Of a DNA stretch of 64,000 bases, positions 4,396-64,000 are shown piece by piece. The notes under the pieces are model-generated. The model worked only from the letters and a program-made list of their open reading frames with translations. It had not been told where the DNA came from and made no database searches. This stretch comes from Bdellovibrionota bacterium (lineage in GTDB: Bacteria > Bdellovibrionota_C > UBA2361 > OMII01). A program made the position numbers and the translations under genes. The DNA lies in contig JBIJBE010000003.1 in NCBI GenBank assembly GCA_044345405.1, positions 8,427-72,426 of the forward strand, written 5' to 3'. Each line of letters opens with the position of its first letter. Position 1 is the first letter of the stretch.

Positions 4396-4519
4396 GGGAG
4401 GGCGACCGTCCCCGGTCGCCGAAATGTTTACGTGTCGTACACTACATTCGACCTATGCGAACACGGCGGTCGAGGACCCCACTTCGCTACGCTACGAGGG
4501 ACATGCTGACCGCCCTCCC
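4396..4519. repeat. Copy A of a dispersed REP/MITE-like palindromic element (GGGAGGGCGACCGTCCCCGGTCGCCGAAA ... CTTCGCTACGCTACGAGGGACATGCTGACCGCCCTCCC)
   Basis: Terminal inverted repeats GGGAGGGCGACC / GACCGCCCTCCC. The same family recurs at 17480, 33027, 43003, 49027 and 50298. This copy sits 27 bp downstream of the bioB stop. Confidence 0.8.
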
Positions 4520-4546
4520 ATGCCATGGGTCGGAGGCTGATATTCC

Positions 4547-8588: not shown

Positions 8589-8855
8589 GGGGTTATAGAA
8601 ACTAGCCTACGAGATGGGGGGCGGGAAGTAAAGGGCCGGGTCCTGTGCGAATCTGTTCGGCTTAGGCGGTGGGGCTCTTTTCTCTTTGCTCCTCCACCAG
8701 TTGTGGCACTCTGCGTCGGTCATTTTAGCCGCCGTTTTTGTTCAAAAAGTAGTTCGTCCCACGCAACTTTTCCCCTCAAGGAGCGATGAGAGGCCTGACA
8801 GTGAAACTCCGACGCGTGAGGTCGGTGATTCATCAGGCAGGGAGATTGAACGCAT

Positions 8856-9615: not shown

Positions 9616-9631
9616 CTCTTGTTCGGCCGCC

Positions 9632-33026: not shown

Positions 33027-33084
33027 CCGGCGACCGTGATCCCCCTTCGCCAAGGCTTCGGGGGACAAGCTGGTCGCCCTCCGG
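33027..33084. repeat. Copy C of the palindromic repeat family (CCGGCGACCGTGATCCCCCTTCGCCAAGGCTTCGGGGGACAAGCTGGTCGCCCTCCGG)
   Basis: It shares the GGCGACC/GGTCGCCCTCC ends and the GGGACAAGCTG core with copies D, E and F. It lies about 75 bp downstream of the LON-N gene stop. Confidence 0.7.
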
Positions 33085-33157
33085 TTGTGCGACCCGTGAC
33101 ATCGGAGGGCGCGCATTCCTGCGCGCCACCTGCATGTTTGTTCGGATGTTTATATTG

Positions 33158-42987: not shown

Positions 42988-43002
42988 TCGAGCCTGGTAC
43001 CA

Positions 43003-43126
43003 GGGAGGGCGACCGGCCTCCCCCTTCGCCAAAGCTTCGGGGACAGGTCGGTCGCCGAAAGCTTGCGATTAGCGGGAAATCTTTGCCTGGCGTATCCATA
43101 CGGCGACCGGGGACGGTCGCCCTCCC
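43003..43126. repeat. Copy D of the GGGAGGGCGACC palindromic repeat family. It is composite, with two ends in inverted orientation around GCCGAAAGC.
   Basis: CAGGGAGGGCGACCGGCCTCCC ... CGGCGACCGGGGACGGTCGCCCTCCCAGG. It begins 16 bp after the dapE stop codon. Confidence 0.8.
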
Positions 43127-47617: not shown

Positions 47618-49013
47618 GAAAAACGCTCTTCTCTCATTCGCTTTGGTCGGAACCGCGCTTCTGTCGGGGTGTATCTTTAAACCCGACTTTGAACGTCCCG
47701 TGGTCTTAGATGACGCTCCCTTTACAGAGGCGTCCCCAACCCAGGACACCCTCGCGAACCTTCCTTGGTGGGAGGTATTCAAGGACCCCCACCTTCAAGA
47801 TCTTATCCGCCGTTCACTCATCGCTAATCGCGACCTCAAGATAGCCATGGCTCGAATCGATGAGGCGCGAGGGCTGCTCGGCATCGCTCGTCCAGACCAG
47901 TTCCCCCGACTCGATGTCGCTGGGAACGCCACCCGTGTGGATGGAAGTGACTTCGCCCTTATTCCTACCGACGCGACGAACGATTTCGGGCTCTACGCGC
48001 GACTTGGATTTGAAGTTGATGTGTGGGGAAGGTACGCGAGCGCGACTGAGTCGGCGCGGGCGCAACTTCTTTCGACCGAGTACGCGATGCGCGCGGTAAC
48101 CCTCTCGCTCGTGGCTCAGGTAGCGACAGCGTACCTCCAGTTGCAGAACGTCGATCGCCAGATCGATATATCCGAGCGCACCTTAAAGAATCGACACGAT
48201 GCCACGGTGCTTAACGAGCAGCGGTTCAAGGGTGGCTACGTCGGACTGCTCGATGTGAACCAAGCGCAGATCCAAGAGGAGGAGGCCCGCGCCGCGCTGG
48301 TGGCGCTGAAGCGAGCGATGCGACTGATCGAGAACTCGCTGTGCGTACTATTAGGAGAGGTGCCGCACCCTATCAAGCGTGGTTCCTCCATGATTGACCC
48401 GATGTCGGTTACGGCACTGCCGGCCGGTGTTCCCGCCATGTTACTTGAGCGACGACCGGATGTGCAGTCCGCTGAAGAGAGCGCTCGCGCCGCGGTGATG
48501 CGAATCGGTGTCGCTCGAGCGCAGCAGTATCCAGCGTTTAGTATCACCGGCTTCTTGGGATTGAACTCCATTGAGCACAACGATCTCTTCAAAGGGGACT
48601 CCCGCACCTGGAATATCGGCGCTGGATTACTTGGCCCGCTCGTTGACCTCGGTAAGAGTTGGTCGAGGGTCGATGTAGCTGAGGCGCAAGCGCAGCAGGC
48701 GCTTCAGTCGTATGAGCAATCGGTTCTTGTGGCTGTTCGTGATGTTGAGGACGCGCTCGTGAGTGTGCGTACCTTCAAGGATGAGAATAAGGTCCGAACC
48801 GCGCAGGTGAAAGCGGGGCGAAGCGCCTCGTTTCTCTCCCGTCGTCGATATATGGACGGTGTGACATCGTACCTTGAGGTTCTTGATACCGAGCGGTCGT
48901 TGTTTAACGCTGAGCTCGCTCAATCGAATACGCAGGAGCGATATCTCGGGTCTATGGTGCAGCTCTACAAGGCGCTCGGGGGTGGGTGGCAGGCTGAGGC
49001 TGTGGGGAAGTAG
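47610..49013 (+). CDS. Outer-membrane efflux lipoprotein (NodT/OprM family)
   Basis: Lipobox LLSGC and the two OEP repeats. The gene overlaps the RND pump stop. Confidence 0.85.
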   Translation: MGKKNALLSFALVGTALLSGCIFKPDFERPVVLDDAPFTEASPTQDTLANLPWWEVFKDPHLQDLIRRSLIANRDLKIAMARIDEARGLLGIARPDQFPRLDVAGNATRVDGSDFALIPTDATNDFGLYARLGFEVDVWGRYASATESARAQLLSTEYAMRAVTLSLVAQVATAYLQLQNVDRQIDISERTLKNRHDATVLNEQRFKGGYVGLLDVNQAQIQEEEARAALVALKRAMRLIENSLCVLLGEVPHPIKRGSSMIDPMSVTALPAGVPAMLLERRPDVQSAEESARAAVMRIGVARAQQYPAFSITGFLGLNSIEHNDLFKGDSRTWNIGAGLLGPLVDLGKSWSRVDVAEAQAQQALQSYEQSVLVAVRDVEDALVSVRTFKDENKVRTAQVKAGRSASFLSRRRYMDGVTSYLEVLDTERSLFNAELAQSNTQERYLGSMVQLYKALGGGWQAEAVGK

Positions 49014-49026
49014 GGGGCCGGTGCCC

Positions 49027-49085
49027 GGGAGGGCGACCAGGATCCCACTTCGCTACGCTACGAGGGACAAGCTGGTCGCCCTCCC
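49027..49085. repeat. Copy E of the palindromic repeat family (short form: GGGAGGGCGACCAGGATCCCACTTCGCTACGCTACGAGGGACAAGCTGGTCGCCCTCCC)
   Basis: Perfect 13-bp terminal inverted repeats. It lies 14 bp after the OMF stop codon, in terminator position. Confidence 0.85.
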
Positions 49086-49148
49086 CTGGTGCTACCCTGC
49101 GCCCCCTCACACCACCGTCCCGGTGAGCTGACCTATACTCCTCTCCCT

Positions 49149-49709
49149 ATGCCATACCTCACCACCATCCGAACTCTCGCCCTCTCGCTCGTAGCTGCGC
49201 TCATCATCGCAGCACCTAACGCCCACGCCGAGTCCGCCCACGAAATGCAGCGCTCCGCCCGCGAAGCGTTACAAGAGTTATATCGAACGACCCCCGGAGC
49301 CGCGGCGATCGGGGAGAAGGCCGCCGGTATCCTCGTGTTTCCCGAAATTATAAAAGGTGGCTTCGTTGTAGCGGCGCAGTACGGCAATGGGGTGCTCTTT
49401 AAACGGGGAGCGGTCGCTGGATATTACAACACGAGTTCGGCATCGTTTGGGTTTCAGGCTGGGATACAAAAGTTCGGGTACGCCCTCTTCTTCATGACAG
49501 AGGACGATCTACACTATTTGAATTCCTCTCAGGGATGGGAGATAGGAGCTCTGCCGAGCCTTACTATCGTTGACACCGGCATCGCCCGATCGCTTTCAAC
49601 CACAACCCTTCAAAAAGGGATGTACGCCTTCTTCTTTAGTCAGAAGGGATTGATGGGAGGCCTTTCGCTCCAGGGAACCAAGATTACCCGCATCCATCCT
49701 GATACGTAA
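49149..49709 (+). CDS. Ysc84/SYLF (DUF500) lipid-binding domain protein with a signal peptide
   Basis: SYLF/Ysc84 fold motifs (GILVFPEIIKGGFVVAAQYGNGVLF, FGFQAGIQKFGYALFFM). The six-frame ORF is open from 49089. Confidence 0.65.
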   Translation: MPYLTTIRTLALSLVAALIIAAPNAHAESAHEMQRSAREALQELYRTTPGAAAIGEKAAGILVFPEIIKGGFVVAAQYGNGVLFKRGAVAGYYNTSSASFGFQAGIQKFGYALFFMTEDDLHYLNSSQGWEIGALPSLTIVDTGIARSLSTTTLQKGMYAFFFSQKGLMGGLSLQGTKITRIHPDT

Positions 49710-49916
49710 TTGTTTTTCGTAGTGAGCGAAGCTGTCACTTTTAGCTCCGAACAGGCATGTCCGTCGAATACCTTGGTCTTTTGAGGGGCATTAGTCTTTG
49801 AGCCCCTGCTAGTATATCTTGTGTGTTGGTGAAGTAGAGGAAGGTTGTTGGTGGGTTATCCAGTGGGTCGTTGAGCGCGTTCGAGGCACGTTCAACCACC
49901 CATTGGGTGATTCACT

Positions 49917-50171
49917 ATGCAAAAAGAAACGAAACAAACACGGTGGTTCCACCTCCCTAAACCGAGGTGGAAATGGATGGCAGCATGGCTTGGGCTTCAA
50001 CCCTTCGCCGCGGCTCCATTGGTCCTGATGGTGATGAAATTGGGGCCTTTCAAGGAACCATTCATCGCTAACGGACCGGTAGTTATGCCAGCTATGTTGT
50101 TGGCTGTAGCTCCGGTTATCCTCCTCATCCACGGCTCTGGGTTGCTCGATCCAGTGCCGAAGGATAAGTGA
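49917..50171 (+). CDS. Possible small membrane protein (84 aa, two hydrophobic segments), followed by a hairpin at 50183-50224
   Basis: ORF only. Hairpin: GCCCCTGCTGT...ACAGCAGGGGC. Confidence 0.2.
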   Translation: MQKETKQTRWFHLPKPRWKWMAAWLGLQPFAAAPLVLMVMKLGPFKEPFIANGPVVMPAMLLAVAPVILLIHGSGLLDPVPKDK

Positions 50172-50297
50172 GGTGTCATGCGCCCCTGCTGTTGTCTTTC
50201 TTACGAAAGCACAGCAGGGGCCGTCGACACTTTTTAGGTTTTCTCGACGGTTGATTCTACTTCACCAACATTCTCTTTTCATTGTAGCCCGGAATAA

Positions 50298-50449
50298 GGG
50301 GAGGGCGACCGTCCCCGGTCGCCGAAAAAGCCACGTGTGTTTCAAGGTATTCGCCATTCGCAACACGGCTTGTGCCCCATAGCTTTAGCGACGGGGTACG
50401 GTCAGGATCCCCCTCCGCTAAAGCTACGGGGGACAAGCTGACCGCCCTC
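50298..50449. repeat. Copy F of the GGGAGGGCGACC palindromic repeat family (long form, with an internal hairpin CCCCATAGCTTTAGCG/CGCTAAAGCTACGGGG)
   Basis: Its left end is identical to copy A (GGGAGGGCGACCGTCCCCGGTCGCCGAAA). It lies immediately downstream of the DAHP synthase stop. Confidence 0.8.
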
Positions 50450-50472
50450 GCAGATCCCGGGACGCGCAGCGG

Positions 50473-51510
50473 TCACCCCCGCAACACCCCATCCGCCTCA
50501 CGCAACAACGCCTCCGTACTCTCCCACGAGATGCACGCATCGGTGATCGAGACGCCATAGCGAAGGTCTCCCTTCTCAAGGTCCTGGCGTCCTTCATGGA
50601 GGTTGCTCTCGAGCATCCATCCCACGACCGGAGAGTCTCCGGCTTGAATCTGCCCTAAGATATCCTTGAACACCGCTGGTTGGCGGTTGTGATCCTTGTT
50701 TGAGTTGCCGTGACTGCAATCAACTATGATGTTCGGTGTGACGCCGTGCTTCGCCATCAGGCTCGCCGCTGACGCCACGCTCTCTGCATCGTAGTTTGGA
50801 GCCTTACTTCCTCGAAGTACGATATGGCCGTACCTGTTCCCTCGAGTTTGTACCACTGAGCACTGACCGTGCTGGTTAATACCGAGAAAACGGTGAGGAT
50901 GAGCGGCTGACATGATGCCGTTTATCGCGATGAGGACGTTTCCATCCGTTCCGTTCTTGAACCCGACAGGGGAGGAGAGGCCACTCGCCATCTCACGGTG
51001 GGTCTGGCTCTCAACGGTGCGGGCTCCGATCGCGGTCCAGGTGATGAGGTCACCGATGTACTGCGGAACGATCGGATCGAGCGCCTCGGTCGCTATCGGA
51101 AGGCCCACCTCAGCGACGGACATGAGGAGTCGTCGGGCCACGAAGAGCCCCTCTTCAACGTGAAAAGAGTCATCGAGTCGTGGATCGTTAATCAGCCCCT
51201 TCCATCCGGTTGTTGTGCGGGGTTTTTCGAAGTACACGCGCATGACGACGTACATCGTGTCTTTGACCTGATCCGCGAGAACCTTGAGGCGCTTCGCGTA
51301 CTCAAGGGTCGCCTCTGGATCGTACGCCGCGCATGGTCCGACGATGACGAGCTTTCGGTTATCCTTTCGGTCGAGGATCGCCTCGACGATTCGTCGGGAT
51401 TCGGTGATCTGGTCTTCTAGGATCTCTGGTAAGGGTAGGACCGCCTTTACCGCGGCTGGCGTAGGCAAGGTATCGACTGACTCGACGTGAAGATTCTCTG
51501 TGGTAACCAT
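50473..51510 (-). CDS. 3-deoxy-7-phosphoheptulonate (DAHP) synthase, class I-alpha (AroG/F/H-like)
   Basis: Conserved motifs (VVGPCAAYDPEA, KPRTTTGWKG, the GARTVESQTHRE region). 345 aa. Confidence 0.9.
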   Translation of the reverse strand: MVTTENLHVESVDTLPTPAAVKAVLPLPEILEDQITESRRIVEAILDRKDNRKLVIVGPCAAYDPEATLEYAKRLKVLADQVKDTMYVVMRVYFEKPRTTTGWKGLINDPRLDDSFHVEEGLFVARRLLMSVAEVGLPIATEALDPIVPQYIGDLITWTAIGARTVESQTHREMASGLSSPVGFKNGTDGNVLIAINGIMSAAHPHRFLGINQHGQCSVVQTRGNRYGHIVLRGSKAPNYDAESVASAASLMAKHGVTPNIIVDCSHGNSNKDHNRQPAVFKDILGQIQAGDSPVVGWMLESNLHEGRQDLEKGDLRYGVSITDACISWESTEALLREADGVLRG

Positions 51511-51718
51511 ACAACTTGGCCTCTCTGGGGGAGGATGAAGGGAACAATAACGATGTGAAGGAATGAACGATTTTTACCCGCGGAGCGGGAAATAAAAAAA
51601 GAAGCTGACGTAGGATCGCCAAGTGCGGTTCATGCAGCCAGGCTACGGGGGCCGAGCTCGGAAGTCAACAGCAAAGATGTTAGAGGATGCAAAACCCTAA
51701 CACGTCCCTCGCTATCCC

Positions 51719-53161
51719 TTAGTTGATTGAGTTAGTAGCTCCCGACTCGCCGCCATGAACCCTCAGACCGAGCGGTTTCGTTTGGCCGTTTAAAAGTCGT
51801 TGCGCCTCGCTCTCGGTCCACTGCTTCGTTTGAGAGAAGTAGTGCGCCATGATGTTTTCAGGGGTGCTTCTATTCATCAAGATATTGCGCACCGCGAAAA
51901 CCAGGGGAGCGGATGCTTCGCTGGTCGTGTTGTTTTGAATCCGTCGTGCCATCGCGTGAGCAGCGAATACCCCCTCGGCGGTGAGAAGGTGCCCGTTTTC
52001 GTCAGGCTTTGTCAGAATGTCGTAGATATTCTCTCCCATCGCTAGCCGCATGCCAGCTTGAACGTTGCGGCTCGTGAGGCTATTTACGGTGAGATTCAGG
52101 TCATGGTTTCCGACCATCATGAGCTGAGCGCCTTTTCCTCCACCCTCCGATTTGACCAGATTCACGATCTCACGGCTCGCGAAGTGTACGAGGCGATGAA
52201 GCGTATGCGTGTCGAGACTAGCCTTGTGCTCTCCATGGCTAATGTCTACTCGCTTCGTTATGCGGAAGAGCCCATCTGAGCCTACTTGAAGCGCCCCGTT
52301 TTTTCGCAGAATACCGAGAACGATACCACCGGCGAACGCCGCTACGTTCTTCATGGACGCCGCAAGTTCGAGGGCTGTGGGATTATTGTAGATCTCAAGG
52401 TTCTTGTCGCCGCTCATGCCACTGAAAACGAAGAACGCCTTAGCGACCGCGTCGGTGGCGTGAGGACTGCGGTTTTTAGCGCCGCCGAGCGTGAGTCCGA
52501 GGTATGCTCCGTCCTTGACGTCCTTGGCGAAGCCCGGACCGCCGACGAACACGAGGTTGTCCTTGACCTCACTCCACTGTGGGTGTTGTCGGATGTATTC
52601 AAGCGGGGTAAGGGCTCGAGAACCCTCCGGAGGTCCCTCACGGAGCGATTTCTCTGAGGAAAGGGGATCCCAGTCCGGCACGATAAGCCCCTTGGCGAAG
52701 CTTATAACGACGCTCTCTTTGTGCGGCCGGATCTGTGAGAGTACGTTTGGAAACGCGTTGGAGGGAACGGCCAACATAATAATACCGCGACCATCGAGCG
52801 CTTTTGAGAGGTCGTTGGTGACCATGTCACTCGTAGGATGTGACTCTGATTTGCGGGCCCATGGAAGGACGTCGAAGCTTTCGGCAAGGCGGTGATGGAG
52901 GGCTTCTCCGTACACTCCATAGCCTACCATGGCGATCTTTGAGTGGAACTCAGCTCGCTGCCCTGGGCTAAGTTGCCCCTGGAAGTTTGTAACCGGTGTA
53001 TCAATGTCGATTGACCGGAGGGATCCTCTTGGAGAAAAGGTGGTGTTGAGGCCGGGTACCTCCGCTGCTGAGAGGTCTTGGCGTTGGCCTGGTTGTGCTG
53101 TTCGATCGTCAGACACGCGATACTCCTTGAAAATCTCGTGACTCGACCCAAAAGGTATCAA
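51719..53161 (-). CDS. Divergent, extended NAD(P)H-dependent glycerol-3-phosphate dehydrogenase (GpsA)-like protein (480 aa)
   Basis: N-terminal Rossmann segment (KIAMVGYGVYGEALHHRLAE ... IIMLAVPSNAF ... VVISFAKGL) and a C-terminal segment (ELAASMKNVAAFAGGI) resembling GpsA. It carries ~70 extra aa at each end. Confidence 0.45.
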   Translation of the reverse strand: MIPFGSSHEIFKEYRVSDDRTAQPGQRQDLSAAEVPGLNTTFSPRGSLRSIDIDTPVTNFQGQLSPGQRAEFHSKIAMVGYGVYGEALHHRLAESFDVLPWARKSESHPTSDMVTNDLSKALDGRGIIMLAVPSNAFPNVLSQIRPHKESVVISFAKGLIVPDWDPLSSEKSLREGPPEGSRALTPLEYIRQHPQWSEVKDNLVFVGGPGFAKDVKDGAYLGLTLGGAKNRSPHATDAVAKAFFVFSGMSGDKNLEIYNNPTALELAASMKNVAAFAGGIVLGILRKNGALQVGSDGLFRITKRVDISHGEHKASLDTHTLHRLVHFASREIVNLVKSEGGGKGAQLMMVGNHDLNLTVNSLTSRNVQAGMRLAMGENIYDILTKPDENGHLLTAEGVFAAHAMARRIQNNTTSEASAPLVFAVRNILMNRSTPENIMAHYFSQTKQWTESEAQRLLNGQTKPLGLRVHGGESGATNSIN

Positions 53162-53431
53162 CTAAACAGACCTTTTGCATTCGAGATGGTGTTAATATTC
53201 TGTGAGGTCGTTGTGAGGCCAGGTTTGAGAGTAAGATTAACAAAAGATTAACGATCGACCGGTCCGAGGGACTGACTTAGGTGCGGGTATTGGGTAAGAT
53301 CCCCCCAACAATAACCGTAAGTACAATAGATTCATGAGTGGTATATGATTAGCGCAGTGTGTGCAGAAACGAACTCTTCCAATCTAAAACGAACCGTTGA
53401 TTCGGTTTCCCGTTCGACTCTCCTTTCCTCC

Positions 53432-54997
53432 ATGGCGAACGCGGGTGTCTACGACATGGTGGTCGTCGGCGGTGGTATCCACGGAGCCGCAGTCGCCCGA
53501 CTCGCCGCTGGCTACGGATTTAAAACAGCTCTTCTGGAAAAGCATGATTACGCCGCCGCTACCTCAAGCCGAAGCTCCAAGATGGCGCACGGTGGCCTTC
53601 GCTACCTTGAGCTTATGGACTTCGAGCAGGTCTTTGAGGGGATTAAGGCTCGTGAAGAGATGTTTGATCATGTCGGCAACCTCGTGAAGCCGGCCGAGTT
53701 CCTCATCCCAGTTCCGAGAGGGGCGTGGTTCTTCAAGCTCAAATTGGGGATCGGACTCTTCCTCTACGACCTTATGGTTAGTAAGGGTAATCGGCGTCAT
53801 CGATGGATACCTCGCTCGAAGCTTACCTTCCCAGGATTCCACAGCGGTAGAGAGGACCTCATGGGGTGCTTCGTCTACACAGATGGCATCATGAGTGACG
53901 CTCGTCTCGTTATCGACAACGTGATCGGGGCGCGTCGGTACGGAGCCGCTTGTCTCAATTACTGTGAAGTAAAATCCATGACTCGGGACGAGTCGGGTAT
54001 CTCGGAGGTAACGGCGGTCGATACCAAGAGTGGTAAGGAGATTAAGCTGAAAGCTCGCCTGGTGGTGAATTGCACAGGGCCTTGGGCCTCAACGTTAGCG
54101 ACCACCCTCGGTGCGGAATCCCGTCCTCTTAAATTTAGCCGCGGTTCTCACATTATATTCAATAAGCCGTGGACGGGCCCAAGTCTCTTCCTTCCAATGC
54201 CAGGAAAGGCTCGGTACTACTTCGTATGGCCGCATCATGCGGGCACGATGGTAGGGACGACTGAGCGTGAGGTTTCCTCCGTTGAACTTGATCCCCTTCC
54301 TTCCAAGGATGAGATTGAGGAGATCTTTGGTCGTCTTGAGAAGGATATTCCCGACGCGGGGCTCAACCGGGAAAGCGCTTGTTACGCATTCGCTGGTATT
54401 CGAACCCTTCCGATTCGTGGAAAGGACGCTAACTCCACAGTGCTCTCCAGAAAGCATATCTGGACTCATGTTAATGGTGTTCTTACCTTGTTAGGAGGCA
54501 AATACACCACCGCTTCTTGGACCGCGCTTGAGGGTGTAAAGGAGGCCGCGCAGATTTTGGGCAAGCCGATCTCGGCGGACGCTCTCAAGAGTCGCGTCGA
54601 TCTCAAAGAACTCCCCGGCAGCGCGACCGATGTTGAGTGTGAGGAGCTTCAACGTTCGCTCGCGACTCATGGCGTGTCCATCGAATCACAAAACCGACTT
54701 ATGGGGCGGTATGGTAAGCGGCTCGGCGATAACTATCTCGAGGCGGTGGAAGCTTCTCAAGAGAAATTGATCGAGCTTGAAACGATGATCGCGCTCGATA
54801 CCGAGCAGGTCGAGAGCCTTGAGGATCTCATGCGTCGACGACTTGAGCTTGAGTATACCGAGGGGCATGGAGAGAAGTATCTCCCCATCATCGGCGAGGT
54901 ATTTAAGCGCGTCCGACCTGACATTGATTTCGAGAAAGAGAGCGCCGCCTATATCGCTCGAATGAAAGCGGTTCGATCGCTCCTTGGAAAAGCGTAG
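53432..54997 (+). CDS. glpD: FAD-dependent glycerol-3-phosphate dehydrogenase (GlpD/GlpA family). The six-frame ORF is open from 53345, but the ATG at 53432 places the FAD dinucleotide fold at the N-terminus.
   Basis: DMVVVGGGIHGAAVARLAAGYGFKTALLEK FAD-binding fold, a DAO domain and a C-terminal GlpD-type domain. Confidence 0.8.
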   Translation: MANAGVYDMVVVGGGIHGAAVARLAAGYGFKTALLEKHDYAAATSSRSSKMAHGGLRYLELMDFEQVFEGIKAREEMFDHVGNLVKPAEFLIPVPRGAWFFKLKLGIGLFLYDLMVSKGNRRHRWIPRSKLTFPGFHSGREDLMGCFVYTDGIMSDARLVIDNVIGARRYGAACLNYCEVKSMTRDESGISEVTAVDTKSGKEIKLKARLVVNCTGPWASTLATTLGAESRPLKFSRGSHIIFNKPWTGPSLFLPMPGKARYYFVWPHHAGTMVGTTEREVSSVELDPLPSKDEIEEIFGRLEKDIPDAGLNRESACYAFAGIRTLPIRGKDANSTVLSRKHIWTHVNGVLTLLGGKYTTASWTALEGVKEAAQILGKPISADALKSRVDLKELPGSATDVECEELQRSLATHGVSIESQNRLMGRYGKRLGDNYLEAVEASQEKLIELETMIALDTEQVESLEDLMRRRLELEYTEGHGEKYLPIIGEVFKRVRPDIDFEKESAAYIARMKAVRSLLGKA

Positions 54998-55265
54998 CGG
55001 ATTGACTCCTAAAGAACGGTCGTGAGGTTCTCTGCGGGGAGGGGATGAATGATGATTCCTCTCCGTCGCTGAGTAGCCGTTGGCTGCTCCTAAAAGTACC
55101 GCGTAGCCGACACTCTCTCGTGTCGGTTTGGGTTGCAATTGGGACGTAGTAGTCACTACCGATACCGCGTCGCGTAGCCCTATGCTACCGTGCGTTTATT
55201 AAACCCAAAACTAACAGTGCCGGTTTGAGTATGATCGGCTTGCTCTGATACCGTGTGCAAACTTC

Positions 55266-56225
55266 ATGAATTCCGGTCGGGATTCAGATTGTTGTTCGAA
55301 TGAAGTTTGCGAGATTGACATGAAGATTGGGCAGCCAGGCCGGGCACCGGCAACAGATGCTATAGGAGATATGATGACACAAGGGACAGTAGCCCTCTCA
55401 TCTCAAGGATGTAAACCTGAAGTTACGACTGATGTAGCACCCATCTTGGAGAAAAAAGCTTTTCTCTTCGATTTTGACGGGACAGTGTGGATGGGCGGCA
55501 CCATGATTCCCGGAGTCGCTGAGACGATCAAAGAGCTTCGCCAAGCGGGGAAGCAACCTATTTACCTCACCAATAATTCATCCAAATCGCGCGCCGAGTA
55601 TTTTGAGCGTCTTCAGAAGCTCGGACTCTGCGCGGACCCGAACGAGATCGTGATGTCGACGGATACCGTTACGACGTACTTGAAGCAACATGGGTTCGCG
55701 AGCGCGTACATCATGGGCACTCCAGCTATGCGAGAGATGTGCGCTGAGGCGGGAGTTGTTCATGAGGAGAATCCAGCCAAGGTCGCGGTAGCGGTCATTG
55801 GATTCGACCGCACCTCAACGGCGGAAAAACTCACAACAGTGGCTCGTCTCGTCGCGAAGGGAGTCCCGTACATCGTCGCGCATCCGGATCCATTCTGTCC
55901 GAGCGATGAGGGTCCGATCGTCGATTGTGGCGCGTACTACGCGTGCATCAAGACCACAACGGGAGTTGAGGCGAAGGCTGTTCTCGGAAAGCCAAGCGCC
56001 TCAATGATAGCGGAAGTCGAGAAGCGCTTCTCGTTCGATCGCTCTGACATGGTGGTTCTCGGCGATCGTCTTTACACGGATGTCGCGTTGGGTCGAGAGG
56101 CCGGCGTTGACTCTGTGCTTGTGTTATCAGGTGAGAACACCCTTGAGCACGCCGCTGTGAGTAATGAGAAGCCCACCTGGATTCTCAACTCAGTGGCTGA
56201 TCTTCGATTCAAGATAGCGAAGTAA
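55266..56225 (+). CDS. HAD-superfamily subfamily IIA hydrolase (NagD/CUT1-like sugar or nucleotide phosphatase). The true start may be internal.
   Basis: Motif I FLFDFDGTVW, the TNNSSKSRAEYFERL segment typical of HAD-IIA, and a C-terminal GD motif (VVLGDRLYTDV). Confidence 0.65.
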   Translation: MNSGRDSDCCSNEVCEIDMKIGQPGRAPATDAIGDMMTQGTVALSSQGCKPEVTTDVAPILEKKAFLFDFDGTVWMGGTMIPGVAETIKELRQAGKQPIYLTNNSSKSRAEYFERLQKLGLCADPNEIVMSTDTVTTYLKQHGFASAYIMGTPAMREMCAEAGVVHEENPAKVAVAVIGFDRTSTAEKLTTVARLVAKGVPYIVAHPDPFCPSDEGPIVDCGAYYACIKTTTGVEAKAVLGKPSASMIAEVEKRFSFDRSDMVVLGDRLYTDVALGREAGVDSVLVLSGENTLEHAAVSNEKPTWILNSVADLRFKIAK

Positions 56226-56265
56226 ACACAGTACGCTGCCTGATTTAGTAGTAAGGAGAAAAGGC

Positions 56266-58209
56266 ATGGACGCGCATTCAGCAGTTATACGTGAAACTCG
56301 TAAAGAGGTGGATCCTCAATCGCAAGCTTGTGGGGTTCGTCTCCCAGGCCAGGCGAATCGAGAGGCGTACCTCCGCTCCTTAGCGGCTGGAACGGTGCCC
56401 CCAATGGTGGTGATGAGCGGGTTGCCAGGGGCTGGAAAGACCACGGCCCTTCAATTCCTCCAACAGGAGGGTTCGGCCACCTACACACCGGTGACTCGGT
56501 ATATGCCGCGAGATCGTCGTCCGAGTGATACCGCGGGCGATAAGCCGTGGAGCTTCGATAAAAACGCCGCGCCGGGTGAGGACCCAACGGCTCCAGGATC
56601 GGTCATTTTCTCGAACGTAAAGTACAAGGGGTACTACGGATTTCCGGGGCGTGACATCGTGAACGCGATCGACAAGGGAGAGATCCCTGTGATGCTCGTG
56701 ACAAGCTACGTCGAAATGGTTCAGCTCTCAGAGGCGTTGCACAACCTCGTTCCGGCAGCGCCGCTCGTGAGCCTACGTCTTGAGGTTCCTCAAGAGGTTC
56801 TTCCCGGACGTATTCTGCGAAGGGTAGGAGCGGACGCGACAGAGCACCAAGAGCGAATCGAGCGCCTCGACGGCTTAGTGAAGGCCGATCGCCTTCAAAC
56901 TCCGCTCTTGAACAAGGTCCACGATACGCGAGTTATCTGGAACTTGAAGCCAAGCGAGATAGCGGAGCACGGTTATTTTGGCTCTCAAATAAAAGCTCTC
57001 ACACCGGACGCTCTCGCCGCTATGCTTGTAGAGGCTAAAGTTGACGCGGTTGCTCGAGCGCAGCGAGAGGCTCAAGACATCCTCACACCGAGGCCGTTAA
57101 CGTACGATAGCGCGGTCGTTCCAGCTTCTATCACGGATGTATTGGATAGGGTGCTTCTGCCAGCAGCCGCGGCGCGATTAGCTGATGGGGCGTTGGGGCA
57201 GGGTGAGAGTCCGCTTGTCCTTAAGGCGGGTTTGGCCGCAGCCATCTATTTGGGAGACAAGGGACGAGTGGTTTCTCCTGACATCGATTTCGTTCTTCCG
57301 GAAAATCCGAGAGCGAAGATGCAAATGGAGGTCCTGATGGAGTCCTTGTCCGATCAGCCCGTGGAATGGGTTGATGGCAAGAACAAGGCCGTCTACCACT
57401 GCGAGGGAATTAAGGGCGAGGCGAAGGCGAACGATGGTACGAACGTTGAGCTTGACGCGTTGCTCAGCACTCGGGTTCAGCCTGATCCGAAGGGATTCGT
57501 GTTCGCCTGTACGCATGACGCTCACGACCTCTTCTACCGAAGAATGGTTACGACCCCGGCCGGAAACTCGGTGGCGATGATCCCGCCAGAGCAGCTCTGT
57601 GTCGAGAAATTAATCGCTGGTCGAGGGCCGGATATTAATAAGTTTGACCTGTTTGACGCGAGCGGACTCCTCGCCACCTTTCACCTCAATCCGAACCTCG
57701 TGAAAAAGATGATCGAGTCGCAACGTTTTGACGAGGCTCTCGATGAGGACGCCGCGCGCGTAATCTCGACGGCGAAGCGACAGCTATCTGACGAGGCGCT
57801 TACGCAGCTCGGAATCACGGAGCCGGAGGTGCAAGCTGTGGTGAGATCTCTTGGGGAGTTGGTCGACGATGAGTGGGCCGAGTATCCATCCGAAACTCGC
57901 GTTTTGACGAAGTCTGCTCTGAAGCAGTTCGCGTTCTTGAGCGCCGTAGAACGCTCTCTCAAGAAAGTAGAGGCGATCATGAACGACAGGGTTTTCTCCA
58001 TCGCCGGAGAGAAGGTGTCGATCGGTGAGCGCTTTGGAGAGGATAACGTCCGAGCTGGGATCGCCCGGTTGCGAGCGCACGTACGGCTGCACAGTGAGTT
58101 TTACGCCGGGACGCGTGATACCTTCGTGAGACGGGCTCTCGGAAAACAGGAAGACGAGACCCGATTCTTCCAGCATCTCGATAGTCAGCGTCAGCGTCTC
58201 TCTCGCTAG
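56266..58209 (+). CDS. Large (647 aa) protein with an N-terminal guanylate-kinase-like P-loop domain and a central segment resembling a Pol-beta-type nucleotidyltransferase
   Basis: P-loop SGLPGAGKTT, then GK-like segments (TPVTRYMPRDRRPSD...W-F and FSNVKYKGYYGFPG). The central GLAAAIYLGDKGRVVSPDIDFVL fits the NTase pattern G-x9-13-D-x-D. The ~300-aa C-terminal helical region has no match. Confidence 0.45.
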   Translation: MDAHSAVIRETRKEVDPQSQACGVRLPGQANREAYLRSLAAGTVPPMVVMSGLPGAGKTTALQFLQQEGSATYTPVTRYMPRDRRPSDTAGDKPWSFDKNAAPGEDPTAPGSVIFSNVKYKGYYGFPGRDIVNAIDKGEIPVMLVTSYVEMVQLSEALHNLVPAAPLVSLRLEVPQEVLPGRILRRVGADATEHQERIERLDGLVKADRLQTPLLNKVHDTRVIWNLKPSEIAEHGYFGSQIKALTPDALAAMLVEAKVDAVARAQREAQDILTPRPLTYDSAVVPASITDVLDRVLLPAAAARLADGALGQGESPLVLKAGLAAAIYLGDKGRVVSPDIDFVLPENPRAKMQMEVLMESLSDQPVEWVDGKNKAVYHCEGIKGEAKANDGTNVELDALLSTRVQPDPKGFVFACTHDAHDLFYRRMVTTPAGNSVAMIPPEQLCVEKLIAGRGPDINKFDLFDASGLLATFHLNPNLVKKMIESQRFDEALDEDAARVISTAKRQLSDEALTQLGITEPEVQAVVRSLGELVDDEWAEYPSETRVLTKSALKQFAFLSAVERSLKKVEAIMNDRVFSIAGEKVSIGERFGEDNVRAGIARLRAHVRLHSEFYAGTRDTFVRRALGKQEDETRFFQHLDSQRQRLSR

Positions 58210-58308
58210 GCGAGCCTCGCTGAAGCCCATAGAGGCTTTATAGGGAGATATGGGATACTCACGTGAGTCCCGTTCTCCTTGTAAGGTGGCTGGGGCTATC
58301 GGTAAGGT

Positions 58309-59106
58309 TTAGTGAGAGAACGTCGCGGGATCTCCACCTCGTACATCAACAGATACCTTTTCTCCCTCTACAGTTACTATCGTGTAACTCTTACTCGGCG
58401 TGCCGGTATTCGACACGTCCTCTACGCATGATTGAAGGGTGAAGTACGGGATGCCGTTGTGGGTCCACATATTGTTTCGATGGAGGTGGCCGTTGAAAAC
58501 CGCGATTACCTTGCCGCTCGCCTCAAGAACTGCTCGAACCTCGGCGCGATTCTCCACGAACGCTTTGTGCGGAGTTCCCTCAAACCAAAAGCACCCGGTA
58601 AGGTCTTGATCGCTGATGGGATGGTGCATGAACACAAGGGTTTTGCGCTTTGTGCTCGCGAGGTCCGCCGCAAGCCACTCAATCTGATCAGCTTCAATGA
58701 TCATACGAGAATGGTTGAAGTGTCGGGTGTACAGAAACACACAGTGGTAGTCGCCCACATCAAAGGAGTAGTGGAGCTTCTCACGGTGTAACAGCGCGCA
58801 GAGGTCCTCATACGTTAAGTTCTCTCGGTCGTGGTTGCCGACGGTGTGATGAACGGGAGCCTTGAATTTCCCGAAGTAAAAGAGAGCTCTCTTAAAATTT
58901 TCCCGGTCAAATTCTACGCTGGGATACCTGAGATCGTCCTGACTGATGTCTCCGAGTTGCGCGATGAACTCTACGTCGTTTTGGTTATTGAGGGTCTCCA
59001 CGAGTTCGGTGATAACGCGCTCAGATTCGAAACTCATGATACGATTGTTGCCCCGATAGAATGGGGTCGGGCCGATGTGACTATCTGTGATGATCGCGAA
59101 TTTCAT
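58309..59106 (-). CDS. Calcineurin-like metallophosphoesterase
   Basis: MPP motifs (ITDSHIG, the QLGDIS GDxxD/R box, VGNHD, the GHLH segment). Confidence 0.7.
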   Translation of the reverse strand: MKFAIITDSHIGPTPFYRGNNRIMSFESERVITELVETLNNQNDVEFIAQLGDISQDDLRYPSVEFDRENFKRALFYFGKFKAPVHHTVGNHDRENLTYEDLCALLHREKLHYSFDVGDYHCVFLYTRHFNHSRMIIEADQIEWLAADLASTKRKTLVFMHHPISDQDLTGCFWFEGTPHKAFVENRAEVRAVLEASGKVIAVFNGHLHRNNMWTHNGIPYFTLQSCVEDVSNTGTPSKSYTIVTVEGEKVSVDVRGGDPATFSH

Positions 59107-59261
59107 GAATTCTCTCCTAGAGGGGTGTCGCCGGCGAGTCTAATCAATACCGTTGCCTCTCGCAATAAAGGCCGGCCGGCGTCTGAATACACGGACATGG
59201 TCTTCGACGAGCGATGAGAAGAAAGTGCTCTGGGTGCCGGCATATCGGGCACAATTTCCCG

Positions 59262-60338
59262 CTATGACACGAGCCGTTGTGGATAGCTGATTCGTTTAAG
59301 AGTTTCGAATTGTTGAATAATTTTGACCGAGTCGATGGCGGGGCCAAAGGTGTCGTAGAGAGACTGGCAGAAGGTGTCCAACTCTCGACTGTTCTCCGTC
59401 TCAAAGCGTAGTTCGAAGTCCCAGTTTCCGGTACACGAGATCGCCGCCACAACGTTCGGACAGAGGGCTATCATTTTATAGAGAAGCTTTTTTTGATCCG
59501 GACTCATTCCTCGGTCCACGAGGAGAAGACGGTAGGTTTGCACGCCGATCTTGTCGGTTCGAAGTACGTATATTTTGCCCCGAATAATTCGCTGTTCGGT
59601 GAGTTTGTCTATTCGGTATTGAATGGAGCTCGCGCTCATAGCCATGGCGCGAGCTATCCCTTGGAGAGACGTGTCAGGATTGCCGCTCAAAAATTCGAGG
59701 ATTCTCCCATCTGTATCGTCTAAGGCTCGTACGGGAGTTTTCGATGTAAGGTGAATACTCTCTCTCTTGTGAGAGGATGGCGAGAGATAGAGAGGATTAA
59801 AAACACTCCAATCGATCGCAATTCGAACCGTTTTCTCGAAATGGGCGCCGGCCTCCGCCGGTCTCAGGAGTGTAAATAACTCATCGACTTCATGTATCTG
59901 TTGAGCCCACAACCACAGCATATACCGGTAGCCGCCACCCATTCGGTTTAATCCCATGACGCGGGAATGGGTCATAACCGTTTTTTCTAAACGCTTTTGG
60001 CCAGCGGAGCTCTCGGCTCCTCGATTAAAAAAAGTGGTAACGTCGAGGTATCCGAGAGCGAAGTGATCGATATGATAGATGGGAGTGATTATGCCACGAC
60101 GAAGAAGCGAGTCTCTCGCGTGTCGGGTGGCGTGCTGACTCAGACCGGATCTTCGAGCCAGCTCCTTCACAGAGTCGTCCGCGTTCAATACATTCGCGGC
60201 AAGGAAAATCCTTTCTTTGTCCGATAATCTGCTATGACTCTGCATCCGGTAGGATATAGCAGGAAGTGAGGGTGTGAGGCGAGTGGAATCATACTCCGCA
60301 CGGTCTGATGGGAATGTTCCGAAATCATGTAATGTCAC
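59262..60338 (-). CDS. Tandem Lrp/AsnC-like (HTH_AsnC plus RAM-like) two-module protein. It may be a siroheme-decarboxylase (AhbAB/NirDL)-like enzyme or a regulator.
   Basis: Two successive wHTH+RAM-like modules (DKERIFLAANVLNADDSVKELARRSGLS..., DGRILEFLSGNPDTSLQGIARAMAMS...). Confidence 0.45.
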   Translation of the reverse strand: MTLHDFGTFPSDRAEYDSTRLTPSLPAISYRMQSHSRLSDKERIFLAANVLNADDSVKELARRSGLSQHATRHARDSLLRRGIITPIYHIDHFALGYLDVTTFFNRGAESSAGQKRLEKTVMTHSRVMGLNRMGGGYRYMLWLWAQQIHEVDELFTLLRPAEAGAHFEKTVRIAIDWSVFNPLYLSPSSHKRESIHLTSKTPVRALDDTDGRILEFLSGNPDTSLQGIARAMAMSASSIQYRIDKLTEQRIIRGKIYVLRTDKIGVQTYRLLLVDRGMSPDQKKLLYKMIALCPNVVAAISCTGNWDFELRFETENSRELDTFCQSLYDTFGPAIDSVKIIQQFETLKRISYPQRLVS

Positions 60339-60586
60339 CTGTGCGTTACGTGTAGAGCGAGGGGGCGCGCGGTGTCTGAGATAAAGCGGGCGTCCACGGC
60401 GGTCTGGTATCGCGGTATCTCCTTCGAGTGGAAGACGGGCGATAACGGGCGATGCTCTAACTAAATTCTAGTCATTCCTGGCCAACTAAGTGTTTGCGCG
60501 TCTCGTGGGGTGTCGTATTTTCTTGCCCACGCTGTCCTTCGGACGCTGATGAATCGATGTTCACAGGTAGAATACAAGAGGAGTCC

Positions 60587-61789
60587 ATGGATAGAGTAGA
60601 TCGTACGCAGTCGTGTCGGTACGGTGAGATTGTTGATCTGGAGCGTGCTACCCTACCGGGAGCGTTTCGCCCGGCGATAAAGGGGCTCTCCGTTTCTGTC
60701 GAGCAGTTGCCCCACTATGTTGAGGAATCGCTAGCAATTGTAGGCTCGCGCTCAAGGAAAGACATCGAGATATTCCGAAATCTTCTGACAATCAAAGTGC
60801 CTGTGGAGTCCCTTCTTCAAGAGGTCGCCGCTAGCTCTGATGTTTCTATTTCAGAAATACCCGCCGCGTTGTGTCGGATCTGCAACGCGTGGGTTGAGGT
60901 CGCGCCCCAGCATGATGTCGCCGCCCGAATGCCCATCTCTTACGTGGTGGGAAGGCTCGTTGACCTTTGGGTGTCTCATCGTGACGCGAATCTGTCAGAT
61001 GACGAGCGTCGCACCATTCCGTCAAATGAGGCAACACGGGAGGGCTTTGTGAAGAACGACCTTACCGCTAAAGCTCTCTTTGACGCGATAAGTCGGTTAA
61101 GCGCTCCAGCTATGCTTGCCGCTGGCTCCATCGCGCAGCGAAGAGTAGAGCGAATCGGACGGGTAACGATGATAGGTCAGGACCCGTTTAAGGTTTTCTT
61201 CGATACACTTTTTGTCTTTGATCCAGAAAAGGCGAACGTCAACAAGTCGACATCAGAACAGTTTATTCCCTATCTGTGGTCTCGTCTCGAGGCCCGTTGG
61301 TTGGGGTCCGATCGAAAGAGGTGTGAGGATAAGGCTGTTCGATCCGTCAGGGGACGTGAAGGAGAGCTTACCGACATGGCCTCGATGCTGGAGGACAAAG
61401 GGGCACGCGACTTTACGGCATCCGTAGATCGTCGGGATGAGTTCGAGTGGACACGCGCCGCGCTTGAAAACGCGTTGGTAGATGGCGCTTTACGCCGCGG
61501 TGATTATGAAGCTATCCTTCAGTATTTTGGTCTAGGCGGTGCCCAAACAGGGCATGGAGCGCTGAAAAGTTCCGCTCTCTCCATAAAGACGAAGGCTCAA
61601 CGGGGAATCGATCATTTTAAGCGCTACCTCAAGGCCCAAGAGGCCGAGCGTGATGATATCGAATGCCTGTCTTCACAACCGGGTGATTGTGAGACCTTTG
61701 CTCGTTATCCAAAACTCTCTGGAGCTGGTTCTCATCCTAGGCTCATGAGGCGAGCGGAGCAGCGGGCGCAACGTCCAACTGTTTGGTAG
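60587..61789 (+). CDS. Hypothetical protein (about 400 aa from the ATG at 60587 with an AGAGGAG RBS; the six-frame ORF is open from 60494). A 5'-truncated paralogue begins at 63613.
   Basis: A long ORF. Nucleotides ~60961-61350 are ~85-90% identical to 63613-64000. Confidence 0.45.
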   Translation: MDRVDRTQSCRYGEIVDLERATLPGAFRPAIKGLSVSVEQLPHYVEESLAIVGSRSRKDIEIFRNLLTIKVPVESLLQEVAASSDVSISEIPAALCRICNAWVEVAPQHDVAARMPISYVVGRLVDLWVSHRDANLSDDERRTIPSNEATREGFVKNDLTAKALFDAISRLSAPAMLAAGSIAQRRVERIGRVTMIGQDPFKVFFDTLFVFDPEKANVNKSTSEQFIPYLWSRLEARWLGSDRKRCEDKAVRSVRGREGELTDMASMLEDKGARDFTASVDRRDEFEWTRAALENALVDGALRRGDYEAILQYFGLGGAQTGHGALKSSALSIKTKAQRGIDHFKRYLKAQEAERDDIECLSSQPGDCETFARYPKLSGAGSHPRLMRRAEQRAQRPTVW

Positions 61790-61972
61790 TAGTGAGAGTT
61801 AAGCCGGGCAACCCAAGCACCTGGATGTCACGTGAAGTGGAGCAACGGCTTTACCGTACAACACAAAGCCTCACCGTTGTCTTTGAGTTTTCAGTGTCCT
61901 TTGTGGTCCCGTCACTTGTATTCATGGGCCATCTAAGTCCACATGGACACCAGAAGCGGCTTATGCGGACTA

Positions 61973-62230
61973 TCAGTCCCGCTCAAAAAGCATCTGCTGT
62001 CGCTTCGGCTTGATCTGCACCGGCATTCCCGCGGGATAATTTCCAGAGAAGCAAGCGTCGCAATATTTACCATGGGTTGACTCAACGGCGCGGTAGAGCC
62101 CCTCGGTTGAGAGGTAGGCGAGGGAGTCAACACCTATGTACTCCGCGATCTCCTCAATGGTGTGCTTGGAGGCGATAAGCTCGTGCTTATCGGGGGTATC
62201 GATACCGTAGTAGCACGGGTTCTTCGTCAC
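61973..62230 (-). pseudogene. purF: 3' remnant of amidophosphoribosyltransferase (purF), C-terminal ~85 aa only. It is truncated where the REP array begins.
   Basis: PurF C-terminal signature GIDTPDKHELIASKHTIEEIAEYIGVDSLAYLS...CDACFSGNYP (the 4Fe-4S Cys ligands). No upstream PurF sequence exists, since the fragment runs straight into the tandem repeats at 62223. Confidence 0.6.
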
Positions 62231-62387
62231 TGGTGCCAGGCTCTTTTTAAGCGTTTCGTCACTGGTTCGTCACTGGTGCCAGGCTCTTTCTGGTTCGTCA
62301 CTGGTGCCAGGCTCTTTTTAAGCTGCTCGTCACTGGTGCCAGGCTCTTTTTAAGCGTTTTCGTCACTGGTGCCAGGCTCTTTTTAAG
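62223..62387. repeat. Tandem array of five full copies plus one partial copy of a 29-32-bp REP-like unit (TCGTCACTGGTGCCAGGCTCTTTTTAAGC)
   Basis: Directly visible direct repeats. An inverted single copy (GAGCCTGGCACCAGTGAC) lies at 63591-63608 on the far side of the transposase gene. Confidence 0.9.
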
Positions 62388-62420
62388 CAACTCTCTGCCC
62401 CGTTCCCCGATTACACCTGC

Positions 62421-63395
62421 ATGCGTAATCCAAGATTTCTCGTTCCCGGAAAGATACACTTCATCACCTTTCGAACTGAGGAGGGGCTTCCGTTTGTCCC
62501 TCTGCGATTCATGAATATTCTTATTCGGTCCGCCCTCGCCAGAGCCCAAAAGCTCTACCCTGTTAAAATCATCTGCTTTGTTGTTCAGGCTAACCACGTA
62601 CACCTTCTCGTACGGGTGACAAACCCTCAGGATGTTTCGAGCTTTATCGGGTACTTCAAAGCGGAGAGTGCTCACTACCTCAACCGTCTCCTCAACCGAC
62701 GACAACGAACTGTTTGGGCTCCACGTTTCGACAGTCCTGCCGTGTTGGACATAGACAAAGCTCTTGAACTATTCGCCTACTGCTCCCTAAATCCCGTAAA
62801 AGACGGACTAGTTGCGTCAATGCGGGAGTATCCTGGGCTTAGCTCATACCCGTATCTCCTGAGAGGAGAACAGGTAATCCCTGCGAAATCGATCCCAAGA
62901 GATAAAGTTCGCCCATTAGCGGATCCAACTAATCCCCAACGAGAGAACAAGAGCCTGTCTGAATATTTCAGCTCCGATGATTTCCAAGACCTTTCTATTA
63001 CACTCGCCCCGGAAGAGCTTCGACTAGCATTTCCATCAACCAAGGCCTCTACCGCGGAGGAGTTTCATAAAACGCTTCTACAAACCATCTCCAAGTACGA
63101 GCAGATTTATCTCGCTGACCAGGCTGGAGCAGCGCCACTCGGAGTCCCCAAGCTTCTCGCGATCTCCCTCCTTGCTCAACGGAATCCTCCCATCAAAGGT
63201 AGGAAAATGATCTGTCTCTCTTGTTGCAACGACCTTCGCCAGGCGTTCATATCATCATTCAGGCACATAAAAGCGCTGTGCCGGGAAGCCTTCATGAAGT
63301 GGAGCGCCGGACTCATGGTGCCTTATCCGCCCGGGATGTTCGCTCCCCATCCCCCTAGGATCGCGAATTTCATTCCTCAGACTAACTTCTCATAA
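62421..63395 (+). CDS. REP-associated tyrosine transposase (RAYT; IS200/IS605-like Y1 HUH transposase), 324 aa
   Basis: HUH motif NHVHLLV, the catalytic-Tyr region and the RAYT-specific Y-x-x-x-NPVKDGLV motif (FAYCSLNPVKDGLV). The gene is flanked by REP copies in inverted orientation. Confidence 0.7.
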   Translation: MRNPRFLVPGKIHFITFRTEEGLPFVPLRFMNILIRSALARAQKLYPVKIICFVVQANHVHLLVRVTNPQDVSSFIGYFKAESAHYLNRLLNRRQRTVWAPRFDSPAVLDIDKALELFAYCSLNPVKDGLVASMREYPGLSSYPYLLRGEQVIPAKSIPRDKVRPLADPTNPQRENKSLSEYFSSDDFQDLSITLAPEELRLAFPSTKASTAEEFHKTLLQTISKYEQIYLADQAGAAPLGVPKLLAISLLAQRNPPIKGRKMICLSCCNDLRQAFISSFRHIKALCREAFMKWSAGLMVPYPPGMFAPHPPRIANFIPQTNFS

Positions 63396-63612
63396 GACTC
63401 TGACTTCACAGTTAACAGCGCACGCGACCCCGTTGTTCCGCTAACTCATAGTGAACAAGAGATCACGTGGCTCCTTCTGGCCAAGAGCCAAAGTTATAGA
63501 CAAAGAATGCGTGGACCGCAGCTCTAGAGCTGCAGCCTTATGGGGGCAAAAAACAAGCGCCTGACCGCATGGTAAAGCAAGGAAAGCAAGGAGCCTGGCA
63601 CCAGTGACAACG

Positions 63613-64000
63613 ACCTTTGGGTGTCTCATCGTGACGCTAATCTGTCAGACGACGAGCGTCGCACCATTCCGTCAAATGAGGCAACACGGGAGGGCTTTGT
63701 GAAGAACGACCTTACCGCTAAAGCTCTCTTTGACGCGATAAGCCGGTTAAGCGCTCCAGCTATGCTTGCCGCTGGCGCTCTCGCGCAGCGAAAAGTTGAA
63801 CGGCTCGGTCGGGTCGCGATGATGGATCAGGACCCGTTCAAGGTTTTCTTCGATACCCTATTTGTCTTTGATCCTGAAAAAGCGAACATAAACAAATCGA
63901 CCTCGGAGCAGTTCATCCCCTACCTATGGGCTCGACTGGAGGCTCGTTGGTTAGAGTCAGATAAGCGCCGCTGTGAGGCTACGGCTGTTCGCACCGCGAA
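63613..64000 (+). CDS. 5'-truncated paralogue of the 60587-61789 gene (partial, runs off the window). It may be a pseudogene or a gene fragment.
   Basis: The in-frame translation DLWVSHRDANLSDDERRTIPSNEATREGFVKNDLTAKALFDAISRLSAPAMLAAG... is ~85% identical to residues ~125 onward of the first copy. Homology starts immediately after the inverted REP. Confidence 0.5.

Follow-up and report, generated by a model that had tools for sequence, protein, structure and literature searches.

Amidophosphoribosyltransferase (PurF) of the Fe-S type is represented by the structures of the Bacillus subtilis enzyme (PDB 1ao0 and 1gph) and of Arabidopsis ASE2 (6lbp), and by the NCBIfam model TIGR01134, which has a family cut-off of 350 bits. 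The cluster ligands of the B. subtilis enzyme are Cys236, Cys382, Cys437 and Cys440, in 1gph/1ao0 numbering. It is well known that an inserted element can leave duplicated gene ends at its borders, and many genomic islands integrate at the 3' ends of tRNA or protein genes. Campbell-type single-crossover integration of a circular DNA with an internal piece of the chromosome leaves a complete gene A, a truncated B, the insert, a truncated A and a complete B, with direct repeats that represent the cloned homology. REP-associated tyrosine transposases (RAYTs) belong to a transposase class that is usually regarded as domesticated, their cognate REP/REPIN sequences being dispersed many times through the genome, and the Y1/HUH transposases (IS200/IS605) are not known to make kilobase target duplications. 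Most RAYTs are reported to be single-copy genes and vertically inherited (Bertels, Gallie & Rainey 2017, PMC5581495).

The stretch of DNA analysed here, a 64-kb window from a Bdellovibrionota bacterium, carries on its minus strand an 85-codon open reading frame (ORF), at 61973..62230, that corresponds to the C-terminal end of PurF only. The match of this stub to PurF is far beyond chance, covering positions 372-432 of the 432 in TIGR01134 (E 3.2e-17, 63 bits) and residues 394-465 of 6lbp (E 2.4e-16), and the stub can also be aligned to residues 380-447 of 1ao0. It has the same family origin as the Fe-S type enzymes and keeps three of the four [4Fe-4S] cysteines, its NPC motif aligning with Cys382 of 1ao0 and its CDAC motif with Cys437 and Cys440. 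In contrast to these enzymes, it lacks the equivalent of Cys236 together with some 390 N-terminal residues, including the whole Ntn glutaminase domain and the PRPP-binding site. Homology starts only at around B. subtilis residue 380, and upstream of it lie a REP array and a RAYT gene. The score falls far short of the TIGR01134 cut-off over a partial profile, and the stub is a PurF-derived gene fragment, not a PurF. Within the ORF, homology begins at about codon 2-4 and ends in the DNA at around 62221. The annotated frame extends to 62230 because a GTG inside the first REP copy, which is not purF sequence, is in frame and serves as the 'start'. The REP array begins at 62221-62223, so that the stub abuts it directly. 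The first-pass annotation had described a purF stub of ~85 aa with Fe-S ligands in the motif CDACFSGNYP, running straight into the REP array, and this description was accurate.

Sequence beyond the window was reached through an exact-product look-up of a nearby metallophosphoesterase gene, which returned 23 contigs. One of these, the 226-kb metagenome contig L081 (JGI 3300042455, contig Ga0453178_0000008), equals the window from 48309 to 64000, with 0 mismatches over 15,692 nt, and runs on past base 64000. A second contig from a different sample, L083, is identical to the window over 11,207 nt and likewise continues past its end. Continuity into the sequence described below, the window ending at 64000, therefore rests on identical contigs from other assemblies; the window reaches ~1.9 kb past the far end of L081 and so is not literally the L081 record. 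Extended coordinates are those of the window plus a further 5,106 nt of L081. The locus then reads as follows.

60587..61789, plus strand: orfX, full-length, 400 aa, converging on purF.
60962..62221, no strand assigned: left copy of a ~1.26-kb direct repeat, made up of the 3' two-thirds of orfX, a 184-nt spacer and the purF remnant.
61973..62221, minus strand: purF 3' remnant, ~83 homologous codons and the stop.
62221..62390, plus strand: left-end REP array, five direct copies of TCGTCACTGGTGCCAGGCTC(TTTTTAAGC) spaced 28-43 nt, and one partial copy.
62421..63395, plus strand: RAYT gene, 324 aa, Y1/HUH transposase.
63588..63611, minus strand: right-end REP in inverted orientation, GGAGCCTGGCACCAGTGACAAC, with the 18-mer at 63591-63608.
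63612 to ~64813 (extended), plus strand from 63612..64000: right copy of the direct repeat, beginning with a 5'-truncated orfX fragment (orfX').
64564..65997 (extended; L081 3110-4543), minus strand: intact purF, 512.7 bits on TIGR01134.
66002..68245 (extended), minus strand: purL, 954 bits on NF002290.

From left to right the order is full orfX, purF stub, REP array, RAYT, inverted REP, orfX tail, full purF and purL. The longest ORF for orfX begins at 60494 (431 aa), and no Pfam or NCBIfam match was found for its product; orfX' ends at ~64442 in extended coordinates. The two repeats bracket a 1.39-kb RAYT unit (62221-63611) that consists of the REP array, the RAYT gene and the inverted REP, and in a global alignment both inner repeat borders coincide with the outermost REP bases. 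This stub-REP-RAYT arrangement is unchanged in contigs from several samples and in the NCBI assembly GCA_041445565.1. Of the second repeat copy the window includes only the first 388 bases, which is why the intact purF was invisible to the first-pass annotation.

The intact purF ends, at its stop codon, 564 nt past the window and 2,334 nt away from the stub. With MFSEDKFHDEC as its start the gene encodes 477 aa, as it is called in L083; the 464-aa call in L081 results from a JGI start 13 codons later. The product covers the full TIGR01134 profile (1-432), with a score well above the cut-off, and aligns from end to end with 1ao0 (its positions 11-459 pairing with residues 1-447) and with 6lbp. 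The catalytic Cys sits at the mature N-terminus after a short propeptide (HDEC, then GL), and all four Fe-S cysteines are present, as are the PCIFE, NPC and CDAC motifs. By score, profile coverage, catalytic Cys and cluster cysteines the neighbouring full gene is a regular PurF family member, and purL lies upstream of it in L081. The first-pass annotation had proposed that purF was reduced to the stub and that the organism might be a purine auxotroph, and had named an intact purF elsewhere as what would overturn this. A complete copy lies 2.3 kb from the stub, purL is present next to it, and the proposal falls; its fallback, a duplication remnant if an intact copy exists, is supported.

In a species-representative collection, the closest genomes among the 80 loci listed are MAGs from freshwater that bear the labels Proteobacteria, Pseudomonadota or Bdellovibrionota. 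The C-terminal part of PurF in these MAGs shows 76-96% identity to the stub, 96% being the best match. These relatives carry a 767-aa ORF in the purL position of L081, followed by a 482-aa purF. In L001, L002 and L004, purL and an intact purF are followed by the same downstream genes as in the window, the glycerol-3-phosphate dehydrogenase, DAO and DAHP-synthase genes corresponding to those at 48-55 kb. Given this downstream synteny, the stub, the repeats and the RAYT unit all occupy the native purL-purF locus, and the suggestion in the first-pass annotation that purine biosynthesis might have been relocated does not hold. No stub was found at the loci of L001, L002 and L004, nor orfX, RAYT or REP in the retrieved loci of these relatives. 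Compared with them, the window has ~9.5 kb more between purF and the DAO gene. Besides orfX and the duplicated segment with its RAYT unit, this DNA encodes a HAD hydrolase, a P-loop protein of 647 aa, a metallophosphoesterase and an AsnC-like regulator; L002 shares part of it.

We also observed that the stretch 55266-61789, between the DAO gene and purF, behaves as a variable island, absent from L001 and partly present in L002. It contains the HAD hydrolase, the 647-aa protein, the metallophosphoesterase, the AsnC-like regulator (358 aa, double-wHTH) and orfX. At its N-terminus the 647-aa protein carries a P-loop of the guanylate-kinase/zeta-toxin-like kind, and in L100 the gene at its position, upstream of an orfX homologue, has a faint AbiEii match. 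The orfX homologues of relatives again adjoin 615-aa and metallophosphoesterase genes, and do not adjoin purF. The stretch may represent an island of the defence or toxin type.

The two repeat copies have diverged very unevenly. The stub is 94.9% identical to the last 256 nt of the intact purF, and 60962-61653 is about 80% identical to 63612-64303; from 63612 to the window end the sequence repeats that from 60962 onward, with 91% identity over the first 300 nt. Along the repeat the identity changes as follows.

First ~180 nt: 97% identity between the copies.
Following 100-nt blocks: 84%, 74%, 63-77% and 51% identity.
orfX 3' tail and intergenic spacer (184 versus 121 nt): unalignable between the copies.
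Last 250 nt (purF): 95% identity.

In order, then, the divergence is 2-3%, more than 30%, unalignable and 5%. Over codons 2-85 the stub and the intact purF differ at 13 nucleotides, among them the stub's diagnostic SNPs such as AATGGTGTG...GATAAGC at 62156-62180. Eleven of the 13 fall at third codon positions, where neutral decay of the stub would place ~46%; a rough binomial estimate, based on these 13 differences only, gives P(>=11/13) of ~0.005. The differences change three amino acids (T3K, S24T and Q53H), all of them stub-specific. The sites of T3K and S24T are invariant in the nine relatives compared, while that of Q53H varies between Q and P; T3K falls inside the ambiguous junction at codons 2-3.

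The orfX' frame is kept open over 273-276 codons with all gaps in-frame, and its differences from orfX number 55, 48 and 101 at codon positions 1, 2 and 3. At third positions the two copies differ by 2/40 over the first 40 codons of the repeat, by 21/40 over codons 81-120 and by 11/84 within purF, and the repeat is therefore a mosaic of segments of different ages. The concentration of differences at third positions indicates that diverged functional alleles are involved and not simple decay in place. Judged from these substitution patterns, the copies resemble, over much of the repeat, diverged functional alleles that have been pieced together as a mosaic. No full-length orfX allele close to the truncated copy was found, the best full-length matches being 67-69% identical, and no 'empty site', with orfX facing purF and the RAYT unit absent, was found either. 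The loci L001-L004 do not polarise the native purF 3' end, both copies being about equally distant from them once the junction codons are removed.

The product of the RAYT gene matches the Pfam model Y1_Tnp (PF01797) with an E of 8.7e-10. It belongs to NF047646 by a borderline score of 80.7 bits against a cut-off of 80, over profile positions 2-144 of 146, and remains below the cut-off of the IS200 model NF033573 (28.3 against 55 bits). The HUH motif NHVHLL and the tyrosine motif AYCSLNPVKDGLV (Y...NPV..GLV) can be read in its sequence. The five plus-strand REP copies span 62226-62379, and the 18-mer occurs in the window six times exactly and seven times with up to three mismatches, where 0.06 occurrences are expected; none of 100 shuffles reached seven matches. 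The gene is flanked by REPs in inverted orientation, and the same termini are found at homologues in L091-L095. These element ends are conserved in relatives, the left as ...CTGGTGCCAGGCTC and the right as GAGCCTGGCACCAG..., often with short tandem partial duplications. The internal palindrome of the REP, CTGG-TG-CCAG, has a stem of only 4 bp with a 2-nt loop, and when the REP array and the right end were folded as single strands, no stable hairpin emerged beyond shuffled controls (z -1.2 to +1.6). A scan of metagenome contigs for the 18-nt REP returned 28 single matches, by a rough estimate about the chance number, of which L119 alone is related.

An exact look-up of the 324-aa product returned no match; a homology search returned P0042, a 100%-identical entry of 324 aa. 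Homologues of ~324 aa with 30-100% identity, which JGI names RayT, are common in related metagenomes. One of these, P0043, is 85% identical, and the exact same protein occurs in at least three different flanks (L092/L094, L093 and L095); other homologues adjoin unrelated genes.

The unit is similar to E. coli TnpA-REP and to the Pseudomonas RAYTs in its Y1/HUH signature, its inverted flanking REPs and its short palindrome. It differs from these in that the protein, at 324 aa, is about twice the length of the 146-position model and carries a conserved C-terminal extension. The left end is a five-fold tandem, and in 69 kb of this genome no dispersed copy of the REP was found beyond chance-level one-mismatch matches. 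The varied flanks of P0043 are insertion-sequence-like, unlike the single-copy, vertically inherited RAYTs described previously (PMC5581495).

Several other repeat structures were observed. In L119 (7846-8045) a RAYT gene is cut after 46 codons in another context, L093 holds two 96-nt REP doublets of the REPIN type (44-139 and 918-1013), and in L094 the right end of the RAYT unit carries a ~160-nt tandem duplication. Antisense to the RAYT start and the REP array (62298-62705, minus strand), JGI calls an ORF of 135 aa as a gene, almost certainly an artefact of the repeats. A second family of intergenic palindromes, dispersed and unrelated to the first, forms GGGAGGGCGACC ... GGTCGCCCTCCC hairpins, some of them doublets, at the following positions.

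4396-4522: second palindrome family.
33029-33095: second palindrome family.
42996-43126: second palindrome family.
49020-49097: second palindrome family.
50299-50452: second palindrome family.

These, and not the RAYT-flanking repeat, look like the abundant REP-type elements of this genome.

We consider it very probable that the stub is a non-functional purF 3' remnant of the ~1.26-kb segment duplicated around the RAYT unit, with no bearing on purine metabolism. The duplicated segment comprises the convergent 3' parts of orfX and purF, one copy on either side of the 1.39-kb unit, and owing to the duplication a complete copy of each gene remains. The most economical path would be a circular or tandem intermediate, carrying the RAYT unit and the 1.26-kb segment, that entered the chromosome by a single crossover; the observed layout would then follow automatically. 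Alternatively, duplication in place with the RAYT unit at the junction could give the same layout. The pattern of low divergence, then high or unalignable sequence, then 5% divergence in purF requires at least one later exchange with a diverged relative. Homologous recombination of this kind may have overwritten part of one copy and produced the mosaic, for example through an import extending from ~170 nt inside the truncated orfX copy through purF. The formation path, like the donor lineage and the order of events, is inferred.

The layout fits Campbell-type integration exactly, with the repeats in the place of the cloned homology. Unlike in that system, there are no plasmid or phage functions here, the 'vector' would be the RAYT unit alone, the circle is a hypothesis, and by now the repeats have diverged and form a mosaic. 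We do not assume a direct enzymatic origin of the duplication, because Y1 transposases are not known for long target duplications. A microhomology at the junction, between GTTGTC in purF and the REP terminus GTTGTCAC or TTCGTCAC, was considered as evidence; it is suggestive and too short to count.

Other explanations would give the stub a different meaning. That purF was destroyed at its native locus by the REP/RAYT element, leaving a purine auxotroph, seems to us scarcely credible. Within the 64-kb window the stub is indeed all that is visible; tblastn with a full PurF query detected no other purF fragment there, and no other pur gene was found among the 55 window ORFs scanned against Pfam. 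However, intact purF and purL lie just past the window on identical contigs, reproducibly in at least two independent samples (L081 and L083). It could also be argued that the stub is the displaced original 3' end of purF, of the attR type, left by a site-specific integrative island that brought a replacement 3' end. The arrangement here, an intact gene whose 3' end is directly repeated downstream with most of the differences synonymous, is what such islands classically leave, and the region downstream of purF is variable among relatives. Yet no integrase or recombinase lies between or beside the repeats, where the only enzyme gene is that of the Y1 RAYT. The repeat is 1.26 kb long and includes part of orfX, which is not a short att core, and the interval between the copies is only 1.39 kb, exactly the RAYT unit. 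The repeat borders appear to be set by the REP termini and not by a conserved att core. With neither an integrase within the element nor a short att core, the marks of an integrative island, we regard this origin as very unlikely.

The layout is formally also that of a tandem duplication in which the new junction carries an insert. The stub could have arisen purely in place, by replication slippage or unequal sister exchange, with the junction later colonised by the RAYT unit and both truncated copies left to neutral decay. The stub-specific amino-acid changes, two of them at otherwise invariant sites, would fit such relaxed constraint. Against this, two independent events would be needed at exactly the same nucleotide. 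Neutral decay leaves unexplained the share of third positions among the differences (11/13 in purF and 101/204 in orfX), as well as a truncated orfX copy that is still open over 273 codons although ~20% of its nucleotides have diverged. Nor does it account for the roughly tenfold variation in divergence at third positions along the repeat, and we find this sequence of events highly improbable. The duplication around the RAYT unit, modified by later exchange, remains the preferred reading.

The rest of the window encodes ordinary housekeeping and envelope functions, including IleRS, BioB, HemB, LpxC, RND efflux and DAHP synthase. At the window start (1-447), downstream of the isoleucyl-tRNA synthetase gene, we observed a tandem duplication with a period of ~224 nt and 93% identity. 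A sigma-70-family gene followed by YscJ/FliF-like, FliN-C-like, FHIPEP (FlhA/SctV-like, 637 aa) and TPR genes at 8686-14300 is a compact type III/flagellar export-like cluster. The gene at 25405-26769 (plus strand) encodes a 454-aa protein in which an LpxC deacetylase domain, itself complete, follows an N-terminal response-regulator receiver domain as a fusion; for an enzyme of the committed step in lipid A synthesis this architecture is unusual.

There is no sign here of the loss or relocation of purine biosynthesis. Nothing at this locus supports the host-associated lifestyle with which, in the first-pass annotation, auxotrophy would fit, purL and purF being intact. A more general caution is that a fragment of a gene can mimic gene loss where a window or a short-read contig ends, and in fragmented MAGs automated annotation or metabolic reconstruction could score purF as partial or lost. 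We observed that in GCA_041445565.1 the exact stub stands alone on a 1,333-bp contig whose breaks fall within the REP array and the duplicated part of orfX.

The duplication remnant is itself ordinary, and the sole curiosity is how a RAYT unit came to lie between kilobase repeats. The varied flanks of this RAYT in freshwater Bdellovibrionota-like bacteria, together with the mosaic 1.26-kb bracket, hint at residual mobility. It is conceivable, although we think it unlikely, that the 324-aa RAYT lineage, unlike domesticated single-copy RAYTs, is still autonomously mobile, at times excising with adjacent chromosomal DNA by way of a surrogate end, such as the GTTGTC of purF with its resemblance to the element's terminus, and re-entering by homologous recombination. 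If so, a mobile RAYT would create kilobase duplications and shuttle diverged alleles of neighbouring genes between strains, and the five-fold tandem at the left end would be the trace of repeated cycles in which the transposase nicked and rejoined the DNA.
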